This document shows positions 1-23,590 of a stretch of 25,771 nt of DNA, one piece after another (the first letter of the stretch is position 1; the number at the start of each line of letters is the position of its first letter). The translations under genes and the position numbers were made by a program. Origin of the DNA: Candidatus Anstonellales archaeon (GTDB lineage: Archaea > Micrarchaeota > Micrarchaeia > Anstonellales > SKW190). The stretch covers positions 1 through 25,771 of the forward strand of contig JAVZJF010000001.1 of the NCBI GenBank assembly GCA_038870935.1, in the 5' to 3' direction. The notes under the pieces are model-generated. The model worked only from the letters and a program-made list of their open reading frames with translations. It searched no databases and was not told the origin of the DNA.

Positions 1-305
1 TATGCTAATGGATATGTAGAATTAATTGCAATGCTCTGATTATTTATTTTTTCAACGAAAAAGTTTTGATAGTCAATCGTCATAGTTATTCCTTCTCTTA
101 ATTTAACGTTTTGAACAGCCAATTCGGTTTCAGTTGCAATAATGTAAGCATATTTTTGATAAATGTTATTTATGAGTTTTTCGTTTACTAAAGTATCGAC
201 ATTGCTAGATAACATGCTTATAAAAAGGAAATATGCTACTAAATTTATTGCTATTTCAAAAGCTACTTGACCAGTATAAATTTTTTTTATGTTTAACTTA
301 GACAT
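1..305 (-). CDS. Type IV pilin-like protein with class III signal peptide (3'-truncated by window edge)
   Basis: Hand translation from ATG at 305: MSKLNIKKIYTG|QVAFEIAINLVAYFLFISMLSSN..., open to the window edge. G|Q-x-x-x-E followed by a hydrophobic stretch fits the archaeal prepilin-peptidase motif. Starts 5 nt after the flaG-like stop. Not in the ORF track because it is truncated. Confidence 0.6.
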   Translation of the reverse strand, partial: MSKLNIKKIYTGQVAFEIAINLVAYFLFISMLSSNVDTLVNEKLINNIYQKYAYIIATETELAVQNVKLREGITMTIDYQNFFVEKINNQSIAINSTYPLA

Positions 306-310
306 GACCA

Positions 311-772
311 TCAGCAGCTAGAATTCGTATATATCAATTCATCATAAATTCCATTTTCAGTTACTATTTTTATTCTGTTGATTTGATTGGTTTTTGGAAG
401 TGTATAAGGAAATTTAAATGCTACTATTTGTCCTTTTTCCCACACAGTTGAGGAATTTACTTGCACCCAGGTAGAGCCAATTTGTATAGTCACATTTGAT
501 GGAGTTTTTATTTCTCCATTTATTAGTACTGTTGTAGTGTTAGGGTCTGTGATAGGTGAACCGATATTTTTAACATGTATAGTGTCATTTAAATAGCAAG
601 GATCATTGATAATCTTAATTGATGTTGCCACTTGTGAGGAAACGCTTTTAGCTTTATAATTTAAGCTTTTCATAAATGATTGAAAGTTTGAATTTAAAGC
701 AAATACTAACATACTTGCTACAGTTACTGCAGTAATAAAGAATATCATTTGAGTAAATGATTCTCCTGGCAT
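311..772 (-). CDS. flaG: ArlG/FlaG-family protein (archaellin-like N-terminal helix plus beta-sandwich domain)
   Basis: N-terminal hydrophobic helix (FTQMIFFITAVTVASMLVFAL), then IKIINDP, IHVKNIG, TVLING, W-x-x-GQ and C-terminal IKIVTENG, the motif order typical of FlaG/FlaF-like proteins. Confidence 0.7.
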   Translation of the reverse strand: MPGESFTQMIFFITAVTVASMLVFALNSNFQSFMKSLNYKAKSVSSQVATSIKIINDPCYLNDTIHVKNIGSPITDPNTTTVLINGEIKTPSNVTIQIGSTWVQVNSSTVWEKGQIVAFKFPYTLPKTNQINRIKIVTENGIYDELIYTNSSC

Positions 773-943
773 AGTTTATCAACATTGTTTATTTTGTTAT
801 GTTGAAAAGCAAATCAAAATGACTATATTTGAAATAAGGAAGACAATATATAAAATTATTATATTATTGTATTATATGCATAGATTATAATTGATTGATT
901 AAGAGATTCTCTTTAGAGGTTTTTAAATTATTATCTTTCCTTA

Positions 944-1702
944 TTGGTGATTTGTTTGAAGCTTTTGTTTAAGGTTAATCCTTTCAAAAGAGAGTTGAGG
1001 ATATTTTATTCTGATGTGAGGTCATTTCTTGAAGAGAACAATGTTTCTATTGTAGAAGAACCAGAAGAGGCAGACATTCTTCTTACAATTGGTGGCGATG
1101 GTACAATTCTATATAATAGAGTAAAATATTCAAAATATGATCTACCTATATTTGGGATTGGAACTGAGACTTCATTCATTTGCCAAGCCAAAACTATTGA
1201 TTGGAAAGAGAAATTAGAGAAATTGATTAATAAAAAATATTCAATTGAATCAAGAACCCTATTAGATATTTTTGTTAATAATGAGTTTATAGCAGATTCT
1301 TTAAACGAAGCATTAATAAGAAATATTGATCCTAAAATATTGAGATTTGATGTATTAGTTAAGCATTCAGCTAGCAATTCAAATAGATTTATATTCTCAG
1401 CAGATGGTTTTATTGTAGCTACTCCTACAGGATCTTCAGCTCATGCATACGCATGTTATGCAGACATAATTGATGAAAGCACAAATTCATTGGTTTTAGT
1501 TGCAGTTGCTCCACATAGAAGAGAATTTACTCCGATGTATATTTTAAACACATCAACTATAGAAATTAATCTTTCTGATGCCGAGAATAGACATCAAAGG
1601 ATTCAATTAGTTTCTGATGGATTATGTGGCTTTAATTTATCATCAACTGACATTATTTTGATCAAAAGAAGTAAGAAAAAGCAAAAATTCATTAAAATAT
1701 GA
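944..1702 (+). CDS. nadK: NAD(+) kinase
   Basis: IGGDGT motif, LNE motif and ADGFIVATPTGSSAH (cf. DG-x-x-x-STPTGSTAY). True start may be GTG at 947. Confidence 0.9.
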   Translation: MVICLKLLFKVNPFKRELRIFYSDVRSFLEENNVSIVEEPEEADILLTIGGDGTILYNRVKYSKYDLPIFGIGTETSFICQAKTIDWKEKLEKLINKKYSIESRTLLDIFVNNEFIADSLNEALIRNIDPKILRFDVLVKHSASNSNRFIFSADGFIVATPTGSSAHAYACYADIIDESTNSLVLVAVAPHRREFTPMYILNTSTIEINLSDAENRHQRIQLVSDGLCGFNLSSTDIILIKRSKKKQKFIKI

Positions 1703-1762
1703 GATATGTAAAGAATTTGCTTTTAATATTAAAAGCAAAAAAGATATTAATGGTCATTAAAT

Positions 1763-4513
1763 ATGGACAAAAAGCCTGAAGAAATTGAAAACAAATTAAA
1801 GAGTGCAAATGTCAATATCAGTGAAAATATTCAGAACAAGCAAAAACTAAAAATATTTAGAAGAAAGTTTTTTTTTACTATTAAGAAACGATTTTTCGCA
1901 AAAAGAACATACAAATATACTGATATTAGTCAATTGCCATTAATTCCAAAAATAGTTTATGGTATCAAAGAAAGTCTTGAGCAATCAGGGTTAATAGAAA
2001 CTAAGATAAAACAAGAACCAATTATAGGTAAAGAAAAAGAAGCAAAAAAAACAATAAAACAGAAAGATGAAGAGCTAAGGAAGATAAAAGTTATTTCCCC
2101 AACAAGTTTGGCAAAGAAGCTTTTAGGAGTAATGTTAATTTTTATTGCGTTTATTTCATTTTCAATATATTTAATAATGGTCCAAGCAGGTATGGTCCCT
2201 ATTTCTGAGTCATTATATCTAAAAACAAAGTTTGATGTAGTAGAATTGGATAATGGTCTAATTCCATTTAGAAAAGATAATGTGAATTCTCAGATATTTT
2301 ATTCATTAGTAAATGTTACAGCAATGAACATTACTAACATGAGTTACAGGATTTTAATAAGTAATAAACCTATTTATGCAAATGTCTATGTTTTACATTT
2401 AAATCCGAGTATCTATAGTCAATATCAAGAATCTTATTTGGCGTTCGTAAATCTTCTGAAAAAGAAATTCAGTGATTCAGGTATTTATGTTCATGAGGTA
2501 GAAATGGAAGATTTAGATGATATTGCAGATAATTCAATATTGATAATTCCAGTTAATTACATTCCCGCAGAGTTTATACAAAACGATGCAAAACTTCTAA
2601 GAGTGCTTTTTAATAAAGGAATATTCATTTTTTACATAGGAGATACATTTGATAAAGTTGTAACAAACGAGGGAAAAATCATTCAAATGTCTTATGATTC
2701 ATACGAATTTAGAATAAAATTTGCTAAAAAAGGTTCAAATGAATACAATCAAAGAGTAGGCGAAATTCCTAAAATTTCAGATTCATTAAACATCAAAAGT
2801 AGAGAATACATAATTCTAACGAGTAGTGATAATCTAAAAATAACAGCTGAGGGTTTACAATATATTTACAGAGATGAAAAAGGATCAGGAATCTTATTTT
2901 TTCCAGTAGCATTGTCAAGTGGCTGGGATAATATTGAAGACGCAGTTGATGATGTATTTAATGTATATGCATCTTTTTCTTATTATCCAGTTATAGAAAA
3001 AGGATTTGGAAATCTTACTTCAGGTTCAAACATTTTGTTAATAGAAGATTTAAATCCTAATTTCGATAATTTGTATTATATTGCAATATTTAATGCAAAT
3101 ACAACAATGGGTACGGAATATAGAAAAATTTTTTTCCACAGAGTTGAAGCATTACAAAAAGGTGTTGTATATTTAGAACCGCCAAAGGGTAAGTCAAACT
3201 TAGTTTCAAATTTGATAAGCAGTGAGAAATCTTTAATAACCATTGATTTCGTAGAACTTTCAAACGAATTATCTGATGTTTATTTGCATATTTATAGTGG
3301 AGAGCAAAAGCTATATACTCAGAAATTAAAAGGAGGTCCGTTTTTAGTTAATTTAAAGATAATAGGTAAAGAGATAGACTTACCAGTTCCTCCTGGTGGA
3401 TATGTAATAGTTGCGACAAAAGATGAGCAGGGCAATATAATAATAGGAAAAACATATGTAAAAATAGATGAGCCAGAAATAATTCCTTTGTTTGATTTAA
3501 ACAGTTGGCAGGAAGGCAGATTTAATTTTTCAATAGTTTCAAAGTCATCTAAGCAACCTTATTCTTTTGATAAAGTAGATGTTTATTTTGATAATCGTTT
3601 TGTTGGTAGTTTTAATTCATCCCCATTTATAGCTAGGTTGAATGAACCTGCAGAACAAGGCCAACATACGTTTAAGTTTGTCTTTTCTTCAAACGATTTT
3701 GGGACTAAAATTAGTGATGATAAAAAATATGCACTTTCTTTGACCATGACTTATATTAAACCTTATAATTGGTATGAAGATCCTAATTCGCTTATTGCTT
3801 TGGGTATCTCAGTTTTCTTTGTTATTGTTTCAAGATTTATTAAGCCTCCTGAGGAAAAAATATTTTATTTAACAGTACCTGATTTTCCTCAAAGCAAAAT
3901 AAACAAAGTTAAAGTAAAACCAGATTTTTTCATTGCACTTTTTGACCGTGTCAATAGAAGATATGGTTGGCAGTACATGCCTTTGACAATAGAAGAATTA
4001 AAGAAAGCCATTTATGATTTGGATTTAAAAGGTAAGAAATTAATAGTAAATGATTACAACTTAGAGTTAGTATTGAATGCACTCGTTGAAAGAGGTTTAA
4101 TCAAAAAATATAAATATTATTTCTGTCCAACTGAATGGGAGGAAAAAACAAAATTTGATATTGAGTACTTAACCATAATTCGAATGATAAGAGAAACTGC
4201 ATTATCTTTAGCTATAAAATACCAAATTAATTTAGAACATGATAGACCAAATTTCATATTTACATTTCCAACGAAAGAAATTTTTGTCTTTGCTTACTCT
4301 AAGAACAAGAATTTGTCAATCGTTTTGTTGCCTTATCTTAGCAGAGAAGAAGTAATTCTAGTATTTGGTGATATTGAAGAGAAAAACAATTTCATAGATT
4401 CTATATATTCAGATAATTTAACAGATACACAAATAAAGATTGCATACTTAAACAATAATTTGAAATTAATAACAGTTGATGAGGTCAAAAAGTATTTATT
4501 ATCCTTTAAATAA
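1763..4513 (+). CDS. Large two-TM membrane protein of unknown function (large extracytoplasmic region, cytoplasmic C-terminal winged-helix-like region)
   Basis: 916-aa ORF. Basic N-terminus, TM1 at about aa 119-140 (LLGVMLIFIAFISFSIYLIMV), TM2 at about aa 676-693 (LIALGISVFFVIVSRFI). N-x-S/T sequons between the TMs (NVT, NIT, NMS, NLT, NTT, NFS, NSS). Confidence 0.85.
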   Translation: MDKKPEEIENKLKSANVNISENIQNKQKLKIFRRKFFFTIKKRFFAKRTYKYTDISQLPLIPKIVYGIKESLEQSGLIETKIKQEPIIGKEKEAKKTIKQKDEELRKIKVISPTSLAKKLLGVMLIFIAFISFSIYLIMVQAGMVPISESLYLKTKFDVVELDNGLIPFRKDNVNSQIFYSLVNVTAMNITNMSYRILISNKPIYANVYVLHLNPSIYSQYQESYLAFVNLLKKKFSDSGIYVHEVEMEDLDDIADNSILIIPVNYIPAEFIQNDAKLLRVLFNKGIFIFYIGDTFDKVVTNEGKIIQMSYDSYEFRIKFAKKGSNEYNQRVGEIPKISDSLNIKSREYIILTSSDNLKITAEGLQYIYRDEKGSGILFFPVALSSGWDNIEDAVDDVFNVYASFSYYPVIEKGFGNLTSGSNILLIEDLNPNFDNLYYIAIFNANTTMGTEYRKIFFHRVEALQKGVVYLEPPKGKSNLVSNLISSEKSLITIDFVELSNELSDVYLHIYSGEQKLYTQKLKGGPFLVNLKIIGKEIDLPVPPGGYVIVATKDEQGNIIIGKTYVKIDEPEIIPLFDLNSWQEGRFNFSIVSKSSKQPYSFDKVDVYFDNRFVGSFNSSPFIARLNEPAEQGQHTFKFVFSSNDFGTKISDDKKYALSLTMTYIKPYNWYEDPNSLIALGISVFFVIVSRFIKPPEEKIFYLTVPDFPQSKINKVKVKPDFFIALFDRVNRRYGWQYMPLTIEELKKAIYDLDLKGKKLIVNDYNLELVLNALVERGLIKKYKYYFCPTEWEEKTKFDIEYLTIIRMIRETALSLAIKYQINLEHDRPNFIFTFPTKEIFVFAYSKNKNLSIVLLPYLSREEVILVFGDIEEKNNFIDSIYSDNLTDTQIKIAYLNNNLKLITVDEVKKYLLSFK

Positions 4514-4544
4514 GTACAATTTTAACTACCACAAAAGAAACCTC

Positions 4545-4560
4545 AAAAGAAATTTCTTTT
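4545..4560. terminator. Possible bidirectional terminator between convergent genes
   Basis: Perfect 16-bp palindrome AAAAGAAATTTCTTTT, with a repeat of AAAAGAAA at 4533-4540, in the gap between convergent stops at 4513 and 4559. Confidence 0.3.
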
Positions 4561-5317
4561 ATTTGCTTTCTATGAAACCTTCTTCCATCAATTGTCTTAG
4601 AATGTCTTCTACTCTACCTTCATAAACGTTATATACTTTTGCAAATTCGATTATGTCTATTTCACCTTTATTAGCTATTAGCCATTCTTGGACTTTTGCT
4701 TTTAACACATCATCAGATAAATTTGTGAATTTTTCTAATTTTGCTAATAATTCATTATTTTTTGCTTTTAGATTATAATTGTCTATTGCTAATTGTTCAT
4801 TTGCTTCTTTAAGTGCTTTTGATTCTTTAAGCAAACGTAGATATTCTTGATTTAGATTGTCATACATAGAATGTAAAGCTTCATACTTTAGGTCAACAAA
4901 ATCTTTCAATTGATCAATAACTTTAGTAAGCAATTGATTTATCAATACTAAATTTATTTCATAATCTTCCATCAGCAAGTTTAATATATTCAAGAAAAAA
5001 CTCATAGTTTCTAGAAATTTCTTTTTTGGACTCATTCCTGGGCCATAAGTATAACTAACAGTTATCATGTTCTCTTCAAATTCTATGAGAGTAAATATAG
5101 TGGGTTTTTTGTTAATGTCTTTTGACAATACGTTAAGTAATATAACGTTTTTATCAGTTTTAAGTGTGTAGCAAGTCCTTAATTCATTTAATTTTGCATA
5201 AACTTTATCTAAACTAGTTTTCAAAGTAACAGGAATGCTAAATTTCGATGCACCAAATTTTTGTTTTTGTATTTCCTCATCTTGTTCTTTCTTTTGTAAA
5301 TCTTTTTTTTCTGGCAT
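4559..5317 (-). CDS. Hypothetical protein: alpha/beta N-domain, coiled coil, C-terminal winged helix
   Basis: 252-aa ORF. Heptad region LHSMYDNL...LLAKLEKF, and C-terminal VQEWLIANKGEIDIIEFAKVYNVYEGRVEDILRQLMEEGFI with a winged-helix pattern. Confidence 0.85.
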   Translation of the reverse strand: MPEKKDLQKKEQDEEIQKQKFGASKFSIPVTLKTSLDKVYAKLNELRTCYTLKTDKNVILLNVLSKDINKKPTIFTLIEFEENMITVSYTYGPGMSPKKKFLETMSFFLNILNLLMEDYEINLVLINQLLTKVIDQLKDFVDLKYEALHSMYDNLNQEYLRLLKESKALKEANEQLAIDNYNLKAKNNELLAKLEKFTNLSDDVLKAKVQEWLIANKGEIDIIEFAKVYNVYEGRVEDILRQLMEEGFIESK

Positions 5318-5340
5318 ATCTAATCACAAAAAGTGTTTAA

Positions 5341-5787
5341 TTAATTTGCCTTTTTTTCATTTTTTTGTTCATTAACCTCTTTTACCAATGGCGGCACATA
5401 TGAAAGTATTGCTAAAATTACAAACATTAGAATAAAAATAAACGAAAAAATTATGCTTACAATGTCAGGTAGTCTTAAATAGATTAAAGGCAGTCCTATT
5501 ACTACTATTGCAAGTAAAAGTCCAATTATTAATATCGTATTCATTGTTGATTCAAATCTTTTTCTTTTTTCAGTATATTTATCTACACAGTTGTTGCAGA
5601 CATATAAATTGTTTAAACCTGTTTTTCTTTGAAAAATTTTTGCCTTTATATTCCTCAAAGTGACTAAAATATAATCGTTTTCATTTACTTTTTTAGCATT
5701 TTCGAGGCTTTGTTTAGCTAGTTCAATACCTCATTTTATGCAGATATTTTTTTTATGAGTTTCTTCTTTTTCTTTTTGGTGTTTCAC
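5341..5787 (-). CDS. Zn-finger (CxxC...CxxC) two-TM membrane protein with in-frame UGA at codon 19 (recoded, nonsense mutant or sequencing error)
   Basis: GGTGA SD, 6-nt spacer and GTG at 5787 are in frame with the 105-aa ORF (43 codons upstream of its TTG at 5658). Reads MKHQKEKEETHKKNICIK*GIELAK...YVCNNC...2 TM, with TGA at 5731-5733. Full length 148 aa. Confidence 0.75.
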
Positions 5788-5823
5788 GTTTCTTCACCAA
5801 ATTTTTTTACACAGTAATATAAT

Positions 5824-7383
5824 TTAGCTTTGGTCGAGTTCTAGCTGTGTCATTTCTTCGCTCAAAATATCTAATTTTTTATAATCAACTTTAGTGAATA
5901 TATTAATTATTGTTCCATCATCTAATCCAAAGTCTTTCAATAATGTAGTTATATTATTTCTTGAAATTCCAAATTTATCAAGAGTAACAACAAACACAAC
6001 AATGTCTAAGTGTCTATTACTCTTATCAAATGTAGAATTTATTTCTTCTATTTGTGATTCAGTTAATCCATACATTTTCAATTGTTTCCTTAAATCTTCT
6101 TTCTTTATCGCAATAGTTTGTGCCATTTCCTCACCCAGTACAGATGATAAATCAATAAAGTATTCTTTTCTAGGTTCTTCTCCTTCTATGTGATCTATTA
6201 TAAATGTTTGTGCAAAATCAGTTGAGATAGTCCATGCTAAGTTTACTGCAGCTTGTCCTACTCCTAAATTCCTTATTTCTTCTTTGATATAATCTGAGAA
6301 ATTTAAAGTTGCTTGTAAATAATCTAAATACTTTTCGAATTTAACTTTTAAAATAAAAGTTGTTCCTACATTGCTAAATATTGCTTCACTGATATCAGTA
6401 GGGTTCTGAGAGGCAACTATTAAACCAAATTGATATTTTCTACCTTCTCTTACAATCATAACTGCATCGCTATTCTCCTCTTTTGCGATTTTCCAGGCCT
6501 CATCTAAAACAATGTAGAGTTTTACTCCTTTTTCTTTTGCCCAGCCTTCTTGTCTCATTTTTTCTTTAATGAATTGCAAAATAGTTAATGCAGATAAAGC
6601 TCTAAAAACTTCATCTGGTAATTTTGAGAGATCAATATCAACTAAACCAGAGTTTGTTAGTTTATCAAGGTCTAAAGTGCTTTGTCTAGCAAAATAATCT
6701 TGGCCTTCTTTGGTAAATTGTTTTAACCTATAAATTGCGTTTTCTAATTCCGCAGGGAATTCATAGTCACCTTTTGCTAATTTCTCTTCTAAAATTCTTA
6801 CAACGTCTTTTAAAGTAGGTACCTTTAAAGGTCTTCCTAATTGATCAACTTGCTTTGTTTCACTTAACTTGAAGCCATTATCTAAATAAGCTTTTTCTAT
6901 AGCCAATTCAGTTAATCTTTTTTGCTCAGGATATGCACCAATGTCTGTTAGTAGTTCTAAGCTTCTAATTATTTGCTTTATTCTTACGTTTGGTGTCATT
7001 CCACCTAAGTCAAGTAAATTTATATAATTTCCTGAGCCCAAAGAAACAATTTTACCATTTGTACTAGCAACCCAATCCTTATATTCTCCTGCCCAATCTA
7101 TAATTATTGCATTAGTACCCCAAATTAAACTCGTTCTTACTAAAAATGTTTTCACGAAATAAGATTTTCCTGCTCCAGTAATTCCAACTACACAAATATG
7201 GGGATTAGTTAAATACTTGTGATGCCAATGAAAGGGTATGTTAAATATTCTTGTTCTTCCAATGTAGATAGAGTCTGCAATATCTTGCATTAGATATTCT
7301 GCAGGCGGTTCTGGTGGCATTACTAAAATATTTCTTAAGGAAATTGTTTGGTTGTCAACGTCGTTTATTTTTAGCCAGCCCAT
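5824..7383 (-). CDS. VirB4/HerA-FtsK superfamily P-loop ATPase (DUF87-type) with C-terminal helical extension
   Basis: NPHICVVGITGAGKS (Walker A), YIVLDEAW (Walker B), REGRKYQFGLIVASQ (arginine-finger and SQ motifs). ORF track starts at GTG 7392; ATG 7383 is the probable start. Confidence 0.9.
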   Translation of the reverse strand: MGWLKINDVDNQTISLRNILVMPPEPPAEYLMQDIADSIYIGRTRIFNIPFHWHHKYLTNPHICVVGITGAGKSYFVKTFLVRTSLIWGTNAIIIDWAGEYKDWVASTNGKIVSLGSGNYINLLDLGGMTPNVRIKQIIRSLELLTDIGAYPEQKRLTELAIEKAYLDNGFKLSETKQVDQLGRPLKVPTLKDVVRILEEKLAKGDYEFPAELENAIYRLKQFTKEGQDYFARQSTLDLDKLTNSGLVDIDLSKLPDEVFRALSALTILQFIKEKMRQEGWAKEKGVKLYIVLDEAWKIAKEENSDAVMIVREGRKYQFGLIVASQNPTDISEAIFSNVGTTFILKVKFEKYLDYLQATLNFSDYIKEEIRNLGVGQAAVNLAWTISTDFAQTFIIDHIEGEEPRKEYFIDLSSVLGEEMAQTIAIKKEDLRKQLKMYGLTESQIEEINSTFDKSNRHLDIVVFVVTLDKFGISRNNITTLLKDFGLDDGTIINIFTKVDYKKLDILSEEMTQLELDQS

Positions 7384-7411
7384 AAAAATCACACGAGTTA
7401 GTGACTACTTT

Positions 7412-8242
7412 TTAGTTAAGTTGCTGATCAAGCTCAGCATATTCCCTTGGAATCATGAATTCCCAATCAAAGCATCTCAACATATCTTCTGCAGTTAATA
7501 TTCGTGCATCAACAGCTAAAGCGTTTTGTATCCATGATTTAATCTCTTCAGCCTGTCTTCTTGCAGCAGCAACTGCTTGCTCTCTGCTTACTCCTATAGC
7601 AGTTGTTTGAACATATGCGACTATTGCCATAGGTTTATTACCTGCGGTTAATCTTTCTAGTTCTGCTTGCCATAAAGCTAATTCGTTCTCTAATTTTTCT
7701 ATAGTTATAGGGTCTGGGTCTGATTTCTCTCGTTCTCTATTTAATTTATATTGCACAGTATAAATCTTTTCTTTTATTGTTTCTCTCTTTTTGCTAATAT
7801 CAATCACATAAAGCAAATATGAGATTTTTGTTACATATCTCAAACCTGAAATCGCTCTCTCAAAGGATTTAATATAAGTAAGCATTTCTGTTTCAGGTCT
7901 TTCTATTGATGATTTAAATACATTTAATCCTATATAAGCACTTGCGTAATAGAGATTTCCGTCAGTTGCAATAATAGTGTCTTGAGTAGGCGGAATTTCA
8001 AAATGTACAGGTAAAGGAGTAGTTATTTTCATTTTTTTTGTTATTTGAGGAATTACTATATAGCCGTATTTAAATAATATCAATGAAAGAATTGCTGAAA
8101 TTGCTGAAATTATTGTTGCGAGTAATTTTAAAAAAGTTAAATAATCATTAGAAGTTGGAATTGCAAATGCTATCAATAAACTTATTAACGATAATGCAAT
8201 TGCTATGTACGATACCTTATTTTGACTTAGAACGCTTGGCAT
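7412..8242 (-). CDS. Membrane-anchored protein (2 N-terminal TM plus coiled-coil-containing cytoplasmic domain), probable partner of the adjacent ATPase
   Basis: 276-aa ORF with AGGTGG SD and two hydrophobic helices in aa 12-60. About 20 nt gap to the ATPase gene, so likely co-transcribed. Confidence 0.8.
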   Translation of the reverse strand: MPSVLSQNKVSYIAIALSLISLLIAFAIPTSNDYLTFLKLLATIISAISAILSLILFKYGYIVIPQITKKMKITTPLPVHFEIPPTQDTIIATDGNLYYASAYIGLNVFKSSIERPETEMLTYIKSFERAISGLRYVTKISYLLYVIDISKKRETIKEKIYTVQYKLNREREKSDPDPITIEKLENELALWQAELERLTAGNKPMAIVAYVQTTAIGVSREQAVAAARRQAEEIKSWIQNALAVDARILTAEDMLRCFDWEFMIPREYAELDQQLN

Positions 8243-8319
8243 CTAAAATCGACCACCTATAATTGATAATCATATTAAATCCTATAAATATATAATTCCA
8301 ATCCCTTACAAGTTAATTC

Positions 8320-10110
8320 ATGTGTGGAATTATTGGTGTTTTTGGTGAAAATGCACTTCAAAATGTCATTAATGGGTTAATTGCCTTAGAGTATAGAGGT
8401 TATGATTCTGCAGGAATTGCAGTAAAAAAAGACAATAAAATAAAAGTTTATAAGGCAACTGGAGAAGTCAAAAATGTTGTTTCATTAGTTTATAAAGAAC
8501 TTCAAAGTTTAAAAGATTCTAAAATAGCAATAGGTCATACCCGATGGGCAACACACGGAAGACCATGTAATGAAAATGCGCATCCTCATACAGATGAAGA
8601 CTCAACTATAGCAATTATTCACAATGGAATAATTGAAAACTTTGATATCTTGAAAAAAGAATTGTTGAAAAAAGGTTATAACTTTTCTTCAGAAACTGAT
8701 ACTGAAGTAATTGTTCATTTAATTGCCGATAAATACAAGAAGCATAAAAATTTTCAAGTAGCCTTTCAACAAGCGTTGTTGGAATTGAGAGGTACTTATG
8801 CAATTCTTTGTATCAATTCATTTGAAAATAGAATTTATTTTGCTAAATTGGTCAATCCTTTAGTTATAGGATTAGGAGATGATAAGAATTATTATTGCTC
8901 CTCAGACATGGCATCAATGGCAACTCTTAAACTTACTAATAAATTCATTATACTTTCTGATAACGAATATGGCTATGTTGATGAGAAAGAAGGTATTAAA
9001 ATATTCAGTATTTCAGGGAATAATTTGATAAGTAAAGAATCAGTAAAGATAGATTTTGTCTATGGTCAAGCAGATAAGAAGAACTATGAGCATTTCATGC
9101 TAAAAGAGATTAAAGAAATTCCTGAGATTATTTTAAACGCTTATCATGTAGATGTTAATAAAGCAGTTGAGGCGATTAAAAATGCTGACAATATTTATTT
9201 CACTGCTTGTGGAACTAGTTATCACGCTGCCTTAGTAGCAAAATACCTTTTTAACAAAGTTTTTAGAAAAGATGTTCATGTCTATAATTCTTCTGAATAC
9301 ATCTATTTGAATCCCGGTAATTCCAATGATGTTTTGTTTGCGATAAGTCAGTCAGGAGAAACTTTAGACACATTAACAGCTGTTAAAAATGCCAAAAGAA
9401 AAGGAGTAAAGATAATTGCTCTGACAAACCATTATGGTTCTTCAATATTTCAAGAAGCTGATATTAACTTGATGATGAACTCTGGTCCAGAGATAGCAGT
9501 TGTTGCTACAAAAACGTATATAGCACAATTGATTATATTATATAAATTAGTCTTTTCAATAGTTGATAATCAAGCAGAAATAGAAAGATTAAAGGACTTT
9601 AGACAGTTATTAGACTCTTTTGTTAATTCAAATGAAGTTATGGGAAAATTAAATAGCATAGCTAATTCTCTAAAAAATGAAAAAGATTTCTATTTTATTG
9701 GAAGAGGCTTTTCTTATCCAACTGCTTTAGAAGCAGCTCTAAAGCTTAAAGAGATTTCTTATAAACATGCAGAAGCTTTTCCAGCAGGAGAACTTAAACA
9801 CGGGCCATTGTCATTAATTACGAACGATTCTGTGGTAATAGCTTTTGCACCAACAGATTCTCTTATTAAAAAAATACATTCAAATATATTAGAATGTAAA
9901 AGCAGAGGTGCAAAAATATTCTCAATAACTGATAATAAAGATATAATTGAAAATTCAGATTATTCTATTGAAATGGAAATTGTACCTGAGCTATTTACCC
10001 CCATTTATTACATAGTACCAATGCAATATTTTGCATACAAAATGTCAGTCTTGAATAATCTTAATCCGGATAAACCAAGAAATTTAGCCAAATCAGTTAC
10101 GGTAGAATAA
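8320..10110 (+). CDS. glmS: Glutamine--fructose-6-phosphate aminotransferase (isomerizing)
   Basis: N-terminal MCGIIG (Ntn Cys), LEYRGYDSAG, GHTRWATHG, SQSGET, LKLKE, GELKHGP, C-terminal PRNLAKSVTVE. Confidence 0.99.
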   Translation: MCGIIGVFGENALQNVINGLIALEYRGYDSAGIAVKKDNKIKVYKATGEVKNVVSLVYKELQSLKDSKIAIGHTRWATHGRPCNENAHPHTDEDSTIAIIHNGIIENFDILKKELLKKGYNFSSETDTEVIVHLIADKYKKHKNFQVAFQQALLELRGTYAILCINSFENRIYFAKLVNPLVIGLGDDKNYYCSSDMASMATLKLTNKFIILSDNEYGYVDEKEGIKIFSISGNNLISKESVKIDFVYGQADKKNYEHFMLKEIKEIPEIILNAYHVDVNKAVEAIKNADNIYFTACGTSYHAALVAKYLFNKVFRKDVHVYNSSEYIYLNPGNSNDVLFAISQSGETLDTLTAVKNAKRKGVKIIALTNHYGSSIFQEADINLMMNSGPEIAVVATKTYIAQLIILYKLVFSIVDNQAEIERLKDFRQLLDSFVNSNEVMGKLNSIANSLKNEKDFYFIGRGFSYPTALEAALKLKEISYKHAEAFPAGELKHGPLSLITNDSVVIAFAPTDSLIKKIHSNILECKSRGAKIFSITDNKDIIENSDYSIEMEIVPELFTPIYYIVPMQYFAYKMSVLNNLNPDKPRNLAKSVTVE

Positions 10111-10161
10111 ACAACTTAGAATAAAAAATCTTTTTTACCCCTTTATTAAAGCGTAATAAAT

Positions 10162-10236
10162 CGGGCCCGGTGGGATTCGAACCCACGACTTTCTGATTAA
10201 AAGTCAGACACTCTGGCCAAGCTGAGTTACGGGCCC
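10162..10236 (-). tRNA. tRNA-Lys(UUU)
   Basis: Cloverleaf on the minus strand: acceptor GGGCCCG/CGGGCCC, anticodon arm TCTGA-CTTTTAA-TCAGA, T arm GTGGG-TTCGAAT-CCCAC, discriminator G. CCA not encoded, no intron. Confidence 0.97.
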
Positions 10237-10343
10237 TTATTCTTTTTTAAAGGCTAATTAATTCTTGGAATTACGAGATGATATAGAGCTATAATAGAAT
10301 TAGTATAAAAACTTTTTGCTTTTGGCAAATCATATTAGTAGGT

Positions 10344-11300
10344 TTATTCATATTCTATTGTTGCAGGAGGCTTATTTGTAATATCATAAAAAACTCTTCC
10401 AATTTCTGGAACCTCATTTGTTATTCTTAAACTTATTCTTTCTAAAATTTTGTGATCAATTTTAGTGTAGTTAGCAGTCATTCCATCTAGAGAATCAATT
10501 ATTCTTATGACAACTGTTTCATTATATGCTCTTTCATCTCCTTTTACTCCAACTGTTTTCACTGGTAAATGAGCACAAAAGTATTGCCAAGGTAATTCTT
10601 TTAAAATTCCATTCCTATGTGCATTTTCAATTTCTTTTTCCACGATATCTGTTACCTTTCTTAATAACTCTGCTCTTTTTTTTGTTACTTCACCAATTAT
10701 TCTAACAGCCAATCCAGGGCCTGGAAAAGGTTGTCTATTAATTATTCTTTCATCTAAGCCAAGAAATTTTCCTAATTCTCTGACCTCGTGTTTGTATAAA
10801 TCTCTTAACGGCTCCACTAATTTCAAAGAGAGTTTTTCAGGTAATCCTCCGACATTATGGTGGCTTTTAATAGTTGCTCTATTTTCTCCGATCCCGCTCT
10901 CTATCCAATCAGGTGCAATAGTTCCTTGGACTAAATATTCTGCATTAAATTCTTTTGCTTGTTCCTCTAAGATGTCAATAAATAGTTTTCCTATGATTTT
11001 CCTTTTCTTTTCAGGGTCTGTAATACCTTTTAGTCCTTTGAAAAATCTTTCTTCTTCGTTTATAATGTCTATCCTAATATCAAAAGTTCTTCTTATATAC
11101 TCTATGTTTTCTAAATCTGAAATTCTCATTAATCCTGTATCAACAAAAAAACATCTGAAATTCTCTTTCTGGACAATTTTGCTAATTAAAAGTGCTGCAA
11201 CAGTTGAGTCTATACCTCCACTCAAGGCAGCAATGACTTTTTTATCCTTTAAATAACTTAGCTCTTGAATAGTTTTTTGATAGAATTTTTGTACATTCAT
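10344..11300 (-). CDS. guaAB: GMP synthase, ATP pyrophosphatase subunit B (archaeal split type)
   Basis: SGGIDS PP-loop, LVQGTIAPDWIES, IKSHHNVGGLP, RQPFPGPGLAVRI, DITNKPPATIEYE. No GATase domain. ATG at 11300 avoids overlap with the upstream gene. Confidence 0.95.
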   Translation of the reverse strand: MNVQKFYQKTIQELSYLKDKKVIAALSGGIDSTVAALLISKIVQKENFRCFFVDTGLMRISDLENIEYIRRTFDIRIDIINEEERFFKGLKGITDPEKKRKIIGKLFIDILEEQAKEFNAEYLVQGTIAPDWIESGIGENRATIKSHHNVGGLPEKLSLKLVEPLRDLYKHEVRELGKFLGLDERIINRQPFPGPGLAVRIIGEVTKKRAELLRKVTDIVEKEIENAHRNGILKELPWQYFCAHLPVKTVGVKGDERAYNETVVIRIIDSLDGMTANYTKIDHKILERISLRITNEVPEIGRVFYDITNKPPATIEYE

Positions 11301-11317
11301 AGAGATACCTTTTAAAT

Positions 11318-12145
11318 TTAAAGAAGACAAGCCTTTTTATCGGTTACATTGGTTTTTATTACTCTCGGATGGCCTATAGGTTTATTAGAAAATAATGTAA
11401 AACCAAACATGGCCATTCCACAATCATAATTTGTTGAGATGTATTTGAAGAAAAAAGAATTCAGTTCTGCAAGCCCTGTTTCCAAGGCCATGTATCTACT
11501 TGCTTTTATAAGGGAATCAATTGTTTTTTCAGCCATGAACATTTTCATTGCCTTTCTGCCATACATATTGACTTTACTTTTCCACATGTCTGTTGAAATT
11601 ATCTGCTTAGTACTTATAGGTGCTATTGGTAAAATGTAAATGTTATCATTAACTGATTTTCTTATTATGTCTCTAAATTTGTGTTTTGGCCTTATTACCA
11701 AACCACCCATAGATAGTCCAATAACAGTACTTAAACCTGTTTTTGCTTCTATCTCTGCATTATGTGCTATTTTTATTACATCCTTTTCAGGTAAATTCAT
11801 GTTTAAAGCATAATTTAGAGCATAAGATAATGATATGGCAGCAGCACCGCTAATCCCTAACCCATAACCCATTGGCAAATTACAATAATGATTTATAGAA
11901 ACTTCAAAAGGTTTTCCGTATTCCTGGGCATATTTTTTAACTACTCTTAAGCTTGTGGCAGGACTTTCTAAAGGCAAATTGTTGTAAAAAAACTTTGCGA
12001 TTACCTTTCCTTGCGTTTGTTTTACACTAACTTTTGTTGTCATGCCTTCTTCAATACAAAAACCTGCGCCAACAGAACTGTCTCTGTATAATACAGTTAT
12101 GCCTGAAATATGACAAGGCGAATACGCTACTGCTACTTCTGTCAT
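11318..12145 (-). CDS. GHMP kinase, pantoate kinase-like (divergent active site)
   Basis: PCHISG (cf. PGHITG), GAGF, LPMGYGLGISGA (GHMP P-loop), AHNAEIEAKTGLSTV (cf. AH-x-AE...TGLGDV), GGLVIR. Confidence 0.8.
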   Translation of the reverse strand: MTEVAVAYSPCHISGITVLYRDSSVGAGFCIEEGMTTKVSVKQTQGKVIAKFFYNNLPLESPATSLRVVKKYAQEYGKPFEVSINHYCNLPMGYGLGISGAAAISLSYALNYALNMNLPEKDVIKIAHNAEIEAKTGLSTVIGLSMGGLVIRPKHKFRDIIRKSVNDNIYILPIAPISTKQIISTDMWKSKVNMYGRKAMKMFMAEKTIDSLIKASRYMALETGLAELNSFFFKYISTNYDCGMAMFGFTLFSNKPIGHPRVIKTNVTDKKACLL

Positions 12146-12289
12146 ATAAGTATTAATATTGTAATCTTTTGTTTATAATTCCATAATCTAAAATTGGACG
12201 ATTGACAGAATTTAAACAACAATTGCAGAATTGATTGGAAAATTCGTTTACAAATACCTTTATATAGGATTGTTATAATACTTATTTTC

Positions 12290-12526
12290 ATGAGCGATAT
12301 CGAATTTGATGATTATACTTCTTCTGCCAACATGGAAATACGACTAATTACTTTAGAACTGATGAAACTTGCATTCAAAAAGAAGAAATCATTTAAACAA
12401 ATTACAAAGGAATATTTAAAAAACGCAGAATATTTGAAGGAGGCATTGACTAATAGAAATACAAATCTTCTTATCGTTAGGCCTAGACACAAAAAACAAC
12501 CCAAAGATGAAGAGTCTAAAGGTTAA
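12290..12526 (+). CDS. Small helical hypothetical protein
   Basis: 78-aa ORF with ATG start, preceded by an AT-rich promoter-like region (TTTATATA) and co-oriented with the next gene. Confidence 0.65.
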   Translation: MSDIEFDDYTSSANMEIRLITLELMKLAFKKKKSFKQITKEYLKNAEYLKEALTNRNTNLLIVRPRHKKQPKDEESKG

Positions 12527-12590
12527 TATCCAAGATTTTTTACATTATCATACAAATCAATTATTAATATTAAATTAAAATATCATACTT

Positions 12591-14258
12591 ATGAGTATTA
12601 AATCAGCTAAAGCTGTTTTATACTTCTCTAAACTATTTTTTAATCCTAACAATAAATTCACGGCATTATTTATTATCTTTTCAACTCTTACATTGATAGC
12701 TTTCAATCAATTTTTAACCTTTCCAATAATCTATTTGGCATATTTGTTTGGTAAAAACAGGGCTAATAAGGCACTATTCATTATTGCTAGTTATTCATTT
12801 ATTGCTTTGCTCTCATTATTCATTTTCAATTACTTGATTAGATTCGAACAAGCAAACTTCTTTGATTTTTATACTTCAATGTCAGAGCATAACTTAAACC
12901 TATTAATATTGCTAATAGGCATATTTGCCATTCCTTCCTATTTCATAATCAGAGTAGGGATGAATGAAAATTATTTGATTTCTCTGCTATTAATAACTAT
13001 AAGTACTGTGCAACTCACTTCTTATAACCTTTTACTGGAATTGATTTTTTTAGGTAGTTTAATCGCATTTGAATTAATTATACAATTCCTCAACTGGATA
13101 TCGATTTCTAAACTAAAGCTTAATCTTTTAGATACATTTTCTGGATTGCTTGACTTCTGGTACGATGATGATGATAGTATTTTACAAGAAGTAATGTCAA
13201 AAATAGGTATAGAAAGAAGAGTATCTGTTTCTAAAATCATTGTCAATTATGATAGTCATAATCTTAATCTAATAGTGCCACAAATCCATTTTGGTCCAAT
13301 TTCAAGCATTGGAAGTGGTGATTTTCCAAAACTTTTACAAGAAAAGGAGAATAATGAAAACAAATTTATTGTGTTTCATACAGCAGTAACTCACGATAGT
13401 GATTTGGTTGATAGGGAAGAGGTATTAAAAATTATTGACCAAATAACAAAGAATCAAAATTATGAATCAAAGAAATTTTTGAAATTTAGGATGATCAAAA
13501 CCAATGTTGATAATTCTACTTGCTACGTACTTGATTTTGAATTTTTTACGTTAATATTTTTTTCTAATTACCCTAAGTTAACAGAAGATATAACAGAATC
13601 TTTTGGGCAAAAACTCTATGAAAAAGCTAAGACATGTTTTTCTAACCCTTTAATAATAGATTGCCATGATTCAGATACTCATGAATTATGGTATGTTGAT
13701 GAAAAATCTATTGCAGGAAAAAATTATTTATTAGCACTTGAAAAAGCTATTAACGAAATAAAAGACCTAAAATACGAAGAGTGCAATCTTAAGTTTGTAA
13801 AACTTTATAGTGATGACGTTGAAGAGTTGGGTAGTAACGGAATAGCTGCCATAGAGTTTTCTACAAAAAACCAAAAAGTACTATTATTAATATATGATTC
13901 CAATTCAATTGAAATAGAATTGAGAAAAAAATTAGAAATCATGTTAAGCAAATACTATGAAAATTTCATTATTTGTAGCACTGATACTCATGAAATTAAT
14001 GTAAGAAGAGGAATAACTAATCCATTAGCAGATGCACAGAGAGTATTAGATTTAACCAATGAAGTTATTAATAGACTTCTTAAAATAAAAAGCACAAAAG
14101 CATCCACGAGCTTCGCGATTTCTCAATTTAATGTTAAGGTTTTGGGCAATTCTCTTCAATACTCACAATTTTTTGCAATTGCAATAAGCACAATTGCTCT
14201 TATCATTCTTTTGTGTGTCTCTTATTTCGCAGTTAAGTCTATTTTCAAAATCATCTAA
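12591..14258 (+). CDS. DUF2070 family membrane protein
   Basis: Multi-TM N-terminal third, then the pattern IHFGP, FHTAVTHD, IDCHDS, YDSN, STDTHEIN, and a C-terminal TM. This matches the DUF2070 layout. Confidence 0.8.
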   Translation: MSIKSAKAVLYFSKLFFNPNNKFTALFIIFSTLTLIAFNQFLTFPIIYLAYLFGKNRANKALFIIASYSFIALLSLFIFNYLIRFEQANFFDFYTSMSEHNLNLLILLIGIFAIPSYFIIRVGMNENYLISLLLITISTVQLTSYNLLLELIFLGSLIAFELIIQFLNWISISKLKLNLLDTFSGLLDFWYDDDDSILQEVMSKIGIERRVSVSKIIVNYDSHNLNLIVPQIHFGPISSIGSGDFPKLLQEKENNENKFIVFHTAVTHDSDLVDREEVLKIIDQITKNQNYESKKFLKFRMIKTNVDNSTCYVLDFEFFTLIFFSNYPKLTEDITESFGQKLYEKAKTCFSNPLIIDCHDSDTHELWYVDEKSIAGKNYLLALEKAINEIKDLKYEECNLKFVKLYSDDVEELGSNGIAAIEFSTKNQKVLLLIYDSNSIEIELRKKLEIMLSKYYENFIICSTDTHEINVRRGITNPLADAQRVLDLTNEVINRLLKIKSTKASTSFAISQFNVKVLGNSLQYSQFFAIAISTIALIILLCVSYFAVKSIFKII

Positions 14259-14326
14259 GCACTAAGTAATGTTTTAAAACATTTATTGCTTATCTTAACT
14301 TAACTGCTTTGTCAAAAGGTGCTGAA

Positions 14327-14401
14327 GGGCCCGTAGCTCAGTCTGGACAGAGCGGCTGCCTTCTAAGCAGAAGGTCGTGGGTTCGAATCCCACCGGGCCC
14401 G
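14327..14401 (+). tRNA. tRNA-Arg(UCU)
   Basis: Acceptor GGGCCCG/CGGGCCC, anticodon loop CTTCTAA, A20 arginine identity base in the D-loop, T loop TTCGAAT. G27-A43 mismatch. CCA not encoded. Confidence 0.97.
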
Positions 14402-14602
14402 CTTCATAACTTTATGGCATGGAAAGCAAAGAACTTTTACTTTTTTAGTATCTATTGTTTATTTTTATGGAAAATTACTTCATAAAAATGCTGAAATTCG
14501 TTCATTGTAGAAATAAATTCAGCAAAATTTCTATTCGTAAATCGATTAATAGGTTTCTAACATATCTGAAAAACAATAAATTATAACACCTGCAAAGTAA
14601 AA

Positions 14603-14660
14603 TTTATAAAGCTTATTCTTTTTGTAATATCTACAATTCCAAATTATCTATGAGGTGATA
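14603..14660 (+). promoter_or_regulatory. TATA box and Shine-Dalgarno of the S-layer gene
   Basis: TTTATAAA at 14603-14610 preceded by a purine-rich BRE-like stretch. GAGGTGA lies 4 nt before the GTG start at 14663. Confidence 0.55.
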
Positions 14661-14662
14661 TC

Positions 14663-17431
14663 GTGAAAGGAATTTCTGTAAAGAAATTGGCTGCGTTAGG
14701 TATCAGCTCTGTAATGGCTTTGTCTTTGGGCTTTGCAGGTGCTGTATCTTATGAAGGTACGCAGCTAGTAAACGACAATGGTGTACCTCAAGTAACTGTT
14801 GTCGTGGGTGAGAAGGCACAAGCAATTGATGGGGTTGCTGCTGCAAAGGTTGCTGCTTACTTGGCAAGCAAAGCAAACAAGGCTACAACATTAAGTGCTG
14901 TAGTAAAGGGCCAAGCAACATGCAGCGTTACTGGAGGTTCAGGAACAGGTGCTGGTACATGTCCTGTAACAGACAAATCTGTTGTTCTTGAAGTTCAATT
15001 ACCAGGTGAAGCTGGTGGAACATACAGATTTACAACATTGATTGATGACTATGCTGACAGACAAACTGAAAACAGAGTAAGATCAAATGCAGGTACTGAC
15101 AGATGGGATTCGTCTTCATCTGAATTGGGCTCAAACAACAAATATGATTTCCCATTCTATGATAATTATGCGAATCCAAATTCTTTCTTAAGCATAGGGA
15201 ATGTGAACACATACAAAGAAGCAATGGTTAGAGTATCAGGAAGTGATTTAACAGCTTTGAAAACAAATTCTGTTGTTGATGAAAAGTCTGCTAAGAGATG
15301 GGAACAAAGACAATATGTTTGGTTTGCAGGCTATAACAAATTCGATGATTTGGATGACAATAACAACATCAAATTAAGGCCTGAATTGTTTGCTTACTCA
15401 ACAAAGTTCTTTGGTGTAAGTGGAGTAAGTGCAGATGCAGGTATTCCTGTATGTACAGATGACCAAGCAGACCAAGGCTATTTAGCTGGCTGTTCAACAT
15501 CAGATAACTATTATATAGGTAACCACAGGGTAAGGATTAAATTCATGGGAGAAGACTGGGTAATTACAGCACTGTCTCCTCCAAACGGTAATTTAACTGC
15601 TGATGGTGATTTCGTATTTGGAGGTTCAGTTACATTGGCTAAAGAATCCAAATACGGAATTCTCAATGTTGGTGGTGCGCCATTAGAAGCAGAGGACATC
15701 AAAGTAAGATTAGGAGATATTTCATTGGCAACAGGTTCAGATAATGTGCACTATGCAATTTTGGACATATTGGACTCTTCTGATCAAGTTATTCAACAAA
15801 CTCAAGTTAAGCCTGGTCAATCAACAGAAGTATTAACACCAAGCGGATCAAAAGTTAAGATAAGAGTTTATCAGACTGCTCCTGGTTTCACATTGACACA
15901 GAAATGGGCTGAAATTGCTGTAGTAAAGGACGAAAAGACTTTGAGAGATGGCCAACAAGTTGATTCAACTGACAATAAGAACTACTATGTTAAACTCAAA
16001 TGGGTTAATGACTTAAAGCCTTCAAGCGTTTCTGCAGGTACGGATGGTGCTAAGCCAGATTCGTTAAGGGAAATAACTGTTTACAGAGAAACATTTGATG
16101 CTGACACATATTCTCCTGGCTCTGAAATCCCTATGATGGTTAAGCCTGCACAATTCAAGTTGAAATACGTAGGTGTTGATTTGGACAAATCAAAGGACTA
16201 TGCTGACTTGACATTCAAGTTAGAAACAAGAACATTGTCTGGAGTTGGTGTAGTTAGTTCTTCAAGAAACGATAATTCTGCAGTTCAATCAGTATGTAAT
16301 ACAACAGTAACGTATTCTTCAGTTCCTGTATTGACGATTAGGTCAAGTGAAAAGACTTTGAAACCTACTGGCACATTTAGCTTACCTAATGAATATGATA
16401 CATTCTATGTTGTGTTGAACGCATCATCGGCAAATGATAGATACGATGTAATTTATCCATTACAGAACCAACTCACATGTACAAGCGGTTCTACTGCATC
16501 ATTTGGTGCATATGACTACGATGGTTCAAGCACTTCTCCAGTTACTTATGAGTGGGAATATAAGACAGTAGGTACTCAAGGATCTGCAACAGACGGTGGA
16601 AGAGTTCTTTTGACCTTGCCTAATTGGTCAACAACAAACAAAGGAAATTTGACTGTTGTTGAAGATACTGGTAAATGGGATACAGACTCATATGAAGGTG
16701 CAAACTGGACTGCTTACTTTACAGTTACAGATGGTTCAACAAAGTTCTACCAAACATCTGGTAATGATGTATTAGACAACAATATGTACTACTCTTACAC
16801 AAGAAAGATCAACGGTAATACAGGTTATACCACTGGAGGTTCGAAGCTCTTAAAGGTTAACCAATTATCTCACAGAGGTTCTTATTTGTCTTACTCTTCT
16901 GAGAGCGATATCAGATTAAAGATGGCGAAGAGCGTAGCAAGACTCAAGTTCGAAATAGCTGCTGCTGGTACTGCTGCACAAGTTGCTAACGAAGAGACCC
17001 TCAGAGAGGGTGACGAGAGAGAGTGGGCAGGTGTCAAAGTCAAGGTAAAGAAGATCAACTGCGAAGTAGGTGGTTGTACAGTAACTGGTGCAGGTGCTCC
17101 TACATGTTCAGTTGACTCTTCAAACGTGAGAGCAGCAATAGTAGACTCTGATGGTAACGAATTAGGTTCAGCTGTTCAGTCAGTTGTTCCTGCAAGTGTT
17201 CCTTCAAACATGGTTGTGTTAGACACACAATCACCAAGTGGCTTAGTGGTATCAATTGGAGGTCCTGACGTAAACACAGTCACAAAGAATGCCCTTGCAG
17301 GCTCTGTTGACTTCAACCAACAGAGAGTGGTTGTAAAGAAAGTCGGCAATGTCATAGTCGTAGCAGGTCTAACCGGCCAAGACACTATGACAGCAACAGA
17401 GCAGTTCTTAGCAAGCTTACAGAGCAGCTAA
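14663..17431 (+). CDS. S-layer protein
   Basis: Signal peptide MKGISVKKLAAL. N-terminal VVVGEKA..D..AA..VAAYL and C-terminal SIGGPDVN...VIVVAG.TGQDT motifs of the Methanococcales/Thermococcales-type S-layer family. Ser/Thr/Gly-rich, with codon bias typical of a highly expressed gene. Confidence 0.88.
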   Translation: MKGISVKKLAALGISSVMALSLGFAGAVSYEGTQLVNDNGVPQVTVVVGEKAQAIDGVAAAKVAAYLASKANKATTLSAVVKGQATCSVTGGSGTGAGTCPVTDKSVVLEVQLPGEAGGTYRFTTLIDDYADRQTENRVRSNAGTDRWDSSSSELGSNNKYDFPFYDNYANPNSFLSIGNVNTYKEAMVRVSGSDLTALKTNSVVDEKSAKRWEQRQYVWFAGYNKFDDLDDNNNIKLRPELFAYSTKFFGVSGVSADAGIPVCTDDQADQGYLAGCSTSDNYYIGNHRVRIKFMGEDWVITALSPPNGNLTADGDFVFGGSVTLAKESKYGILNVGGAPLEAEDIKVRLGDISLATGSDNVHYAILDILDSSDQVIQQTQVKPGQSTEVLTPSGSKVKIRVYQTAPGFTLTQKWAEIAVVKDEKTLRDGQQVDSTDNKNYYVKLKWVNDLKPSSVSAGTDGAKPDSLREITVYRETFDADTYSPGSEIPMMVKPAQFKLKYVGVDLDKSKDYADLTFKLETRTLSGVGVVSSSRNDNSAVQSVCNTTVTYSSVPVLTIRSSEKTLKPTGTFSLPNEYDTFYVVLNASSANDRYDVIYPLQNQLTCTSGSTASFGAYDYDGSSTSPVTYEWEYKTVGTQGSATDGGRVLLTLPNWSTTNKGNLTVVEDTGKWDTDSYEGANWTAYFTVTDGSTKFYQTSGNDVLDNNMYYSYTRKINGNTGYTTGGSKLLKVNQLSHRGSYLSYSSESDIRLKMAKSVARLKFEIAAAGTAAQVANEETLREGDEREWAGVKVKVKKINCEVGGCTVTGAGAPTCSVDSSNVRAAIVDSDGNELGSAVQSVVPASVPSNMVVLDTQSPSGLVVSIGGPDVNTVTKNALAGSVDFNQQRVVVKKVGNVIVVAGLTGQDTMTATEQFLASLQSS

Positions 17432-17527: not shown

Positions 17528-17666
17528 TGGATTTTAGTCTTCTTTTTTGTTAAAATCTATCGTTAAAAGCTCATTTTTAGTTTATCTATATTCTTATCTT
17601 TATTTCTTTCTCCATGGATATTTGAAATTTGAGCTATCTTGGGAATATCTTGAAGTGGTGATTCAT

Positions 17667-18017
17667 ATGGAAATTAGAATAATAGATGAAGGAATAGGTC
17701 TATCTGCTCTCTTAAGTGATGATAAATATATTTTGATAGAAAGGCCTTTCAAGGACTCAAGGTTATACGAAGGAATAGTTTTTAAACTTAAAAATGATTA
17801 TGTTGAAGTTTATTTTTTAATTGCTTATGGAGAATTAAGGATTTTTAAGAAGTTTTTAGAGAGAAAGTCTATGAGGTCATATCGTTTACTCAACAATAAA
17901 CTGATTAGTATGTTAGAAAAATCTGAATTTAAGCTCTTAAGGAAATACTGCATAAATTTATTGATTAAGTATGAAAGATTATTATTTAATAAACTTTATG
18001 AAGAAAGATATAATTGA
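17667..18017 (+). CDS. Hypothetical protein (116 aa)
   Basis: GGTGA SD, 5-nt spacer and ATG at 17667 (MEIRIIDEG...). The 40-codon upstream extension in the ORF track lies in T-rich post-terminator sequence. Confidence 0.6.
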   Translation: MEIRIIDEGIGLSALLSDDKYILIERPFKDSRLYEGIVFKLKNDYVEVYFLIAYGELRIFKKFLERKSMRSYRLLNNKLISMLEKSEFKLLRKYCINLLIKYERLLFNKLYEERYN

Positions 18018-18806: not shown

Positions 18807-18831
18807 TTTACCTCACTTTTACTTTTTTTGG

Positions 18832-19023: not shown

Positions 19024-19074
19024 AAGAATCACTTAGACTTAAAAAATAATAATAATGAACATGAGTGGTTTTTC

Positions 19075-19368: not shown

Positions 19369-19436
19369 AATCATCAGACCTAAATTATTCTTAACTTTCT
19401 CTTTCTTTATTTTTTATTCTCTTGACTAAAGCTTAT

Positions 19437-20207: not shown

Positions 20208-20293
20208 ACTTTTCCAAAGAGCTAATAAAAAATCAGTAATAAACATCAATCTTTCACATAACTTTCACATAAAAATGCTTATAATTTTAAGTT

Positions 20294-21514: not shown

Positions 21515-21521
21515 TGAATGA

Positions 21522-23581: not shown

Positions 23582-23590
23582 AATCAAAAT

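Follow-up and report, generated by a model that had tools for sequence, protein, structure and literature searches.

The in-frame TGA that interrupts a 148-codon gene in the window (the whole stretch of 25,771 nucleotides that was analysed) is most probably a local error of one metagenome assembly and not a biological signal. Other assemblies read TGT at this codon, and the three-substitution patch that creates the stop is private to this assembly. Since the other same-strain assemblies have an ordinary cysteine codon at this place, the TGA is neither a selenocysteine codon nor a recoding event, and a false selenoprotein or recoding candidate is removed. The gene family itself is real and uncharacterised, lies beside a highly conserved VirB4/CedB-like ATPase across Micrarchaeota, and may deserve a study of its own.

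The reading frame and its sequence in other assemblies

The gene is encoded on the minus strand at 5341-5787 of the window. Its frame opens at a GTG (5787-5785), runs for 148 codons and ends with a TAA at 5343-5341; the sole break is a TGA at 5733-5731 (codon 19), within the local peptide N-I-C-I-K-stop-G-I-E. This codon occupies the column of the second cysteine of a CxxC motif, and a V-C-N-N-C motif is found further on, at residues 63-67. An SD-like GGTGA (5798-5794) precedes the GTG with a 6-nt spacer, whereas the TTG at 5658, from which a mechanical 105-aa ORF was drawn, lies 43 codons downstream of the GTG in the same frame and lacks an SD. The features of the locus are as follows (X1, X2 and X3 are metagenome runs introduced below).

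5341-5787, minus strand: gene of the 148-aa protein, with a putative N-terminal C4 zinc ribbon/treble clef and two predicted TM helices; intact in sister assemblies, with a private TGA here
5794-5798, minus strand: Shine-Dalgarno-like GGTGA; the orthologue start is also preceded by GGTGAT
5785-5787, minus strand: GTG start codon; gene calls on both sister assemblies use the same GTG
5731-5733, minus strand: in-frame TGA, codon 19; TGT (Cys) in GCA_038874535.1, in the Logan contig of SRR30574052 and in the Logan contigs of X1, X2 and X3
5726-5735, no strand assigned: 10-base patch with all three assembly-private substitutions; on the plus strand the other assemblies have C, A and A at 5726, 5731 and 5735, and the window has A, T and T
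5740-5742, minus strand: Cys16 (TGC), first Cys of the N-terminal CxxC, from the translation and the family alignment
5587-5598, minus strand: Cys64-N-N-Cys67, second CxxC of the putative Zn site, from the translation and the family alignment
5404-5538, minus strand: two predicted TM helices forming a hairpin, inside model helices 68-103 and 109-128 (model pLDDT 84)
5656-5658, minus strand: TTG starting the mechanical 105-aa ORF; the truncated product is a mere consequence of the false stop

An exact-protein look-up with the neighbouring 252-aa protein returned two independent same-strain records: GCA_038874535.1 (contig JAVZCF010000004.1), which is a second deposited MAG of the same strain, and a Logan contig of SRR30574052, 1327 bases long. 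In both, an intact 148-aa gene is called from the same GTG. In a three-way DNA alignment, the window matched these two sequences at 487 of 490 nt and differed from them only at 5726, 5731 and 5735. On the coding strand, the other assemblies read ATA-TGT-GGT-AGT (I-C-G-S) against AAA-TGA-GGT-ATT (K-stop-G-I) in the window, giving the peptide C-I-I-C-G-S-E against C-I-K-stop-G-I-E. The corrected residues agree with the family consensus C-I-[IV]-C and with the G-T-E of the orthologue, and the intact 148-aa sequence is also present in ESM Atlas. The truncated 105-aa product, when looked up as an exact protein, had no other record; this product, as annotated from the MAG, is a truncation artefact of the 148-aa protein.

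Logan contigs of four hot-spring metagenome runs (X1-X4) were compared with the window over 4800-6800, X4 having no coverage of the site. The contigs of X1 and X2, which belong to one study, showed only three differences over this range (5726 A>C, 5731 T>A and 5735 T>A, plus strand), and those of X3, from another study, showed the same three together with four other SNPs in the 2-kb stretch, as in a slightly diverged strain that still has TGT. At the three sites the alternative letters made up the entire contig depth (7.8, 6 and 3.8 for X1, X2 and X3, respectively), and neither the letters of the window nor the TGA occurred in any Logan contig covering the site (three runs, two studies), contigs of this type being known to drop minority variants. 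A 70-base query of words spanning the private letters of the window listed no run, which is uninformative either way as only three words were sampled, and exact IUPAC-pattern scans for either version of the site gave no match among genome contigs or metagenome contigs. With TGT in GCA_038874535.1, SRR30574052 and X1-X3, the UGA is not reproducibly present in the organism.

These comparisons bear on several statements of the first-pass annotation. It had described the TGA, within C-I-K-stop-G, as the only interruption of the frame, which re-translation showed to be true of the deposited sequence; its proposed start at the SD-preceded GTG, with an N-terminal extension, agrees with the sister assemblies, in which the same 148-aa gene is called from that codon. 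Among its explanations was an assembly error turning TGT into TGA, to be recognised by TGT or TGC in the reads, and TGT was indeed found, at the level of independent contigs, in three runs and in the second MAG.

The origin of the three-base patch

The differences between the two MAGs are few and clustered. Over the ~45.7 kb compared, there are four isolated SNPs, all on contigs other than that of the window, and two clusters. Within the window, positions 1-15317 differ from the sister MAG only by the three substitutions of the patch and one 20-nt indel at 2138-2157, and positions 18638-25771 contain no substitution. The second cluster is on another contig of this MAG, C5, whose last 40 bases contain three A>T, one C>A and two G>T transversions, six in all (14250-14284, against 5821-5855 of the sister-MAG contig), and the substitutions of the patch, expressed on the plus strand (A>T, A>T, C>A), are of the same types. 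Errors bunched at the end of a contig commonly indicate that the assembler has retained low-quality read tails; the C5 cluster resembles such an error and is similar in kind to the patch. Because the differences are clustered, with so few isolated SNPs, three independent mutations within 10 bp are not credible.

We propose that the 10-base patch of three wrong bases (5726, 5731 and 5735) most likely entered this MAG through an error-rich read that spanned a drop in coverage in the adjacent upstream A-rich stretch, and that the assembler may have kept this bridging read over a correct but dead-ending path. The site is thinly covered: in the Logan data, the contigs of both X2 and X3 break at 5762-5774, inside the A-rich stretch and ~30 bases from the patch. 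The gene of the organism would then read ...N-I-C-I-I-C-G-S-E... and be intact over 148 aa from the SD-preceded GTG at 5787, its product probably comprising a cytoplasmic C4 zinc ribbon/treble clef (C16, C19, C64, C67) and, after it, a hairpin of two membrane helices. A diversity-generating retroelement or gene conversion was also considered as the source of the patch and was rejected: a search of the genome for another copy or a template of the region gave nothing but short, A-rich matches due to chance.

Alternatively, the three changes could be a true multi-nucleotide variant that a sub-population or the source sample carries, a nonsense allele that inactivates the gene or leaves a 105-aa product re-initiated at TTG 5658 and devoid of the first CxxC. 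We consider this unlikely. The TGA does stand in the deposited sequence, but no independent assembly or run contig carries it; contig-level data are blind to minority alleles, so that a low-frequency TGA allele could escape, and the source sample of the MAG, if other than those compared, could carry the patch as a real private variant. Some true microdiversity between the two MAGs is evident from the four isolated SNPs, but this background pattern is quite unlike three linked transversions in 10 bp, and a cluster of the same kind occurs at a contig end of the same MAG. The gene is, moreover, kept in all 61 genomes of the order with its Cys column conserved, and the codon required for re-initiation has no SD.

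Neither of the two MAG assemblies is uniformly better than the other. The 20 bases at 2138-2157 of the window are absent from GCA_038874535.1, and because of this the gene of a 916-aa membrane protein is split there into calls of 773 and 141 aa; the sister MAG is probably the faulty one at this place, since the version in the window matches an intact 913-aa orthologue. In contig C5, ~196 bases (~7337-7532) have no counterpart in the sister-MAG contig (~12569-12572); the gene that has this segment at its end encodes ~1000 aa (1004 aa in this MAG, 996 aa as called in the sister MAG), and the difference is an indel or an assembly difference. The sister MAG also contains runs of 10 N (scaffold gaps) at contig positions 12565-12574 (~18950 of the window) and 316-325, where the MAG of the window is continuous. 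Exact-protein look-ups of four other proteins of the genome returned no record, probably because the mechanical starts differ from the called ones. Since both MAGs carry errors (transversion clusters in one, a 20-nt deletion in the other), single in-frame stops and frameshifts in either should be checked against the other.

The same strain's TGT also bears on selenocysteine, which the first-pass annotation had listed among other options and by which the UGA would yield a CxxU redox or metal site. The codon falls exactly at the Cys column of a CxxC motif, which is the classical position of Cys/Sec exchange, but none of the machinery was detected: the components named by the first-pass annotation (tRNA-Sec, selD, SelB, PSTK and SepSecS) gave nothing over cut-off in the 76%-complete genome. 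Only ordinary tRNAs matched the tRNA-Sec model (Rfam RF01852), at 35 bits at most, whereas its gathering score is 47; ARAGORN detected neither a tRNA-Sec nor any tRNA with a UCA anticodon in the genome. SepSecS (TIGR03531) had no match, and SelD (TIGR00476), PSTK (TIGR03574) and SelB (TIGR00475) had only sub-threshold matches to paralogues. Across the order, SepSecS was over cut-off in 0 of 151 genomes, including a 90%-complete genome of the same genus, one genome giving a weak sub-threshold match. An Rfam scan of 4400-8400 (E<=1) matched no SECIS or other RNA family, an absence that is weak evidence because the presence of an archaeal SECIS model in Rfam is unconfirmed. Local folds around and downstream of the TGA are weak, unremarkable hairpins (z about -2), and only 23 nt separate the stop of the gene from the start of the next one; a terminator-like hairpin is present at the operon end. 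Given that the genome yielded none of the machinery and the 151 genomes no SepSecS over cut-off, selenocysteine is not supported, and we regard it as the least probable of the readings considered here, with a chance close to nil.

Readthrough or reassignment of UGA, by a near-cognate tRNA-Cys or tRNA-Trp or under a code resembling tables 4/25, would also yield the full protein, and before as well as after the TGA the frame is open and conserved. Decoding leaves the flanking I to K and S to I changes of the patch unexplained, however, and no tRNA with anticodon UCA was found. TGA also ends four other ORFs in the window (311-772, 944-1702, 17547-18017 and 21522-22082); for the two of these with orthologues in the sister-genus locus, encoding an NAD kinase (252 aa) and an archaellin-type protein (153 aa), it lies at the exact residue where the orthologues end (252/252 and 153/153 aa). 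TGA is thus a working stop in the organism, and a reassigned code of the table 4/25 type is not supported. The view that genome-wide reassignment was unlikely is upheld by these comparisons, and the suggested readthrough as Cys became unnecessary once TGT had been seen in other assemblies. We judge readthrough or reassignment to be highly improbable, and selenocysteine and recoding taken together still very improbable. A chance as slight as that of readthrough or reassignment attaches to a combined reading: part of the hot-spring population would truly carry the three-base patch as a haplotype, and near-cognate tRNAs would insert Cys or Trp at its UGA, with no Sec machinery involved; if so, the zinc-ribbon protein would still be made at a reduced level, and the site would be a natural leaky UGA in a DPANN archaeon.

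The protein family and its gene neighbourhood

With the TGA attributed to assembly error, the gene can be considered as an intact member of its family. One close homologue was found, a 160-aa protein from a Micrarchaeota MAG (59% identity over 97% of the read-through query). The first-pass annotation had proposed to look for Cys or UGA at this column in homologues: the same-genus orthologue aligns from the N-terminal extension onward, shares the CxxC and reads C-I-V-C-G, with TGC, against C-I-K-stop-G in the window, and Cys occupies the column in 18 of the 22 other aligned family members. In a six-frame search of 61 genomes from the same order, representing 12 families and 29 genera, every genome had the family.

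Among the 23 aligned members, with the TGA of the window scored as Cys, the four Cys columns read CCCC in 13, CCDC in two, CCCH in two, CCCS in one and CCMC in one; in the remaining four, three or all four ligands are gone together. The four putative ligands in two CxxC knuckles are therefore conserved as a set, as expected of a putative C4 site, and the four-Cys site suggested by the first-pass annotation gains support from a pattern of cysteines that behaves across the family like that of a metal site. The decay of these columns is nearly all-or-none, Ser or Thr at the second Cys being accompanied by loss of both cysteines of the downstream CxxC, and one member has none of the four. Single replacements are by D or H, which may also ligate metal, but also by S and M.

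An AlphaFold2 model built on the family alignment (mean pLDDT 84) predicts short strands at both knuckles with a helix between them, followed by two long helices that would form a membrane hairpin. In the PDB its best fold match, which is not significant (E 0.5), is to a ZAD C4 treble clef, and the significant structural relatives are uncharacterised archaeal proteins only. No Pfam or NCBIfam model matches the family above threshold; DUF2116 ('probable treble clef') is matched weakly by three of the 23 members (best E 1.7e-5), short of the curated threshold. Judged from sequence, the 148-aa protein would be an uncharacterised Micrarchaeota C4 zinc-ribbon membrane protein with a predicted zinc site at C16, C19, C64 and C67.

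The two neighbours of the gene are encoded on the same strand.

5824-7392, minus strand: VirB4/CedB/HerA-like P-loop ATPase, upstream neighbour; adjacent to the zinc-ribbon gene in 30/30 loci of the order
4559-5317, minus strand: 252-aa coiled-coil protein, downstream neighbour; completes the conserved triad, and its C-terminus weakly matches a winged helix

The triad of ATPase, zinc-ribbon 2-TM protein and 252-aa coiled-coil protein was present in all 30 loci examined, from 12 families of the order. The homologue locus is syntenic and comprises GlmS, a 277-aa protein, a DUF87 ATPase, the zinc-ribbon gene, a 258-aa protein and a 913-aa protein. Members of this genus have a 276-aa 2-TM protein ahead of the triad (4559-8242 of the window, minus strand). 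The P-loop ATPase is 60-67% identical across the order and 92-93% identical in the same-genus genome. Among protein families it comes closest to CedB and VirB4-like conjugation ATPases, with scores far short of every equivalog cut-off: it scores 77.5 bits with the CedB model NF041017, whose cut-off is 700, and about the same with VirB4-like conjugation models, and thus it is not a CedB equivalog. Among solved structures, HerA and a VirB4-like protein are nearest to it. The 252-aa coiled-coil protein gives weak, sub-threshold MarR/TrmB-type winged-helix matches at its C-terminus.

Gene order suggests that the zinc-ribbon protein may be a small membrane-anchored partner of the adjacent translocation-type ATPase, and the conservation of the triad points to a core, undescribed membrane ATPase module of Micrarchaeota. 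In the literature, Micrarchaeota with VirB4 returned incidental mentions only and DPANN with CedB returned nothing; no description of the operon was among the results.

Comparison with known systems

The patch resembles the errors of low-coverage short-read assembly in being a tight cluster of substitutions in otherwise identical sequence, at a place where depth is ~4-8x in the runs that contain the site, where the contigs of other assemblers break ~30 bases away, and with a twin cluster at a contig end of the same MAG. Such errors usually lie at contig ends, whereas the patch is internal to a 25.8-kb contig.

Sec-decoding archaea with CxxU selenoproteins comprise Methanococcales, Methanopyrus and some Asgard archaea. 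The site in the window is like theirs in having UGA where orthologues have Cys in a CxxC, but unlike theirs in that neither Sec machinery nor a SECIS was found and the UGA is absent from other same-strain assemblies.

The family shares with Pfam DUF2116 and the ZAD C4 treble clef two CxxC pairs ~45 residues apart on either side of a helix; it differs from them by the addition of a two-helix membrane hairpin and a basic tail, and its matches are sub-threshold.

The Ced DNA-import system of Crenarchaeota consists of the VirB4-like ATPase CedB and the small 2-TM subunits CedA1 and CedA2. The locus in the window differs from it in that no CedA-like polytopic protein was identified and the ATPase is not a CedB equivalog, and, to our knowledge, a zinc ribbon is not a described Ced feature. 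In common with Ced, it encodes a VirB4/CedB-like ATPase, whose best NCBIfam match is CedB, beside small 2-TM membrane proteins.
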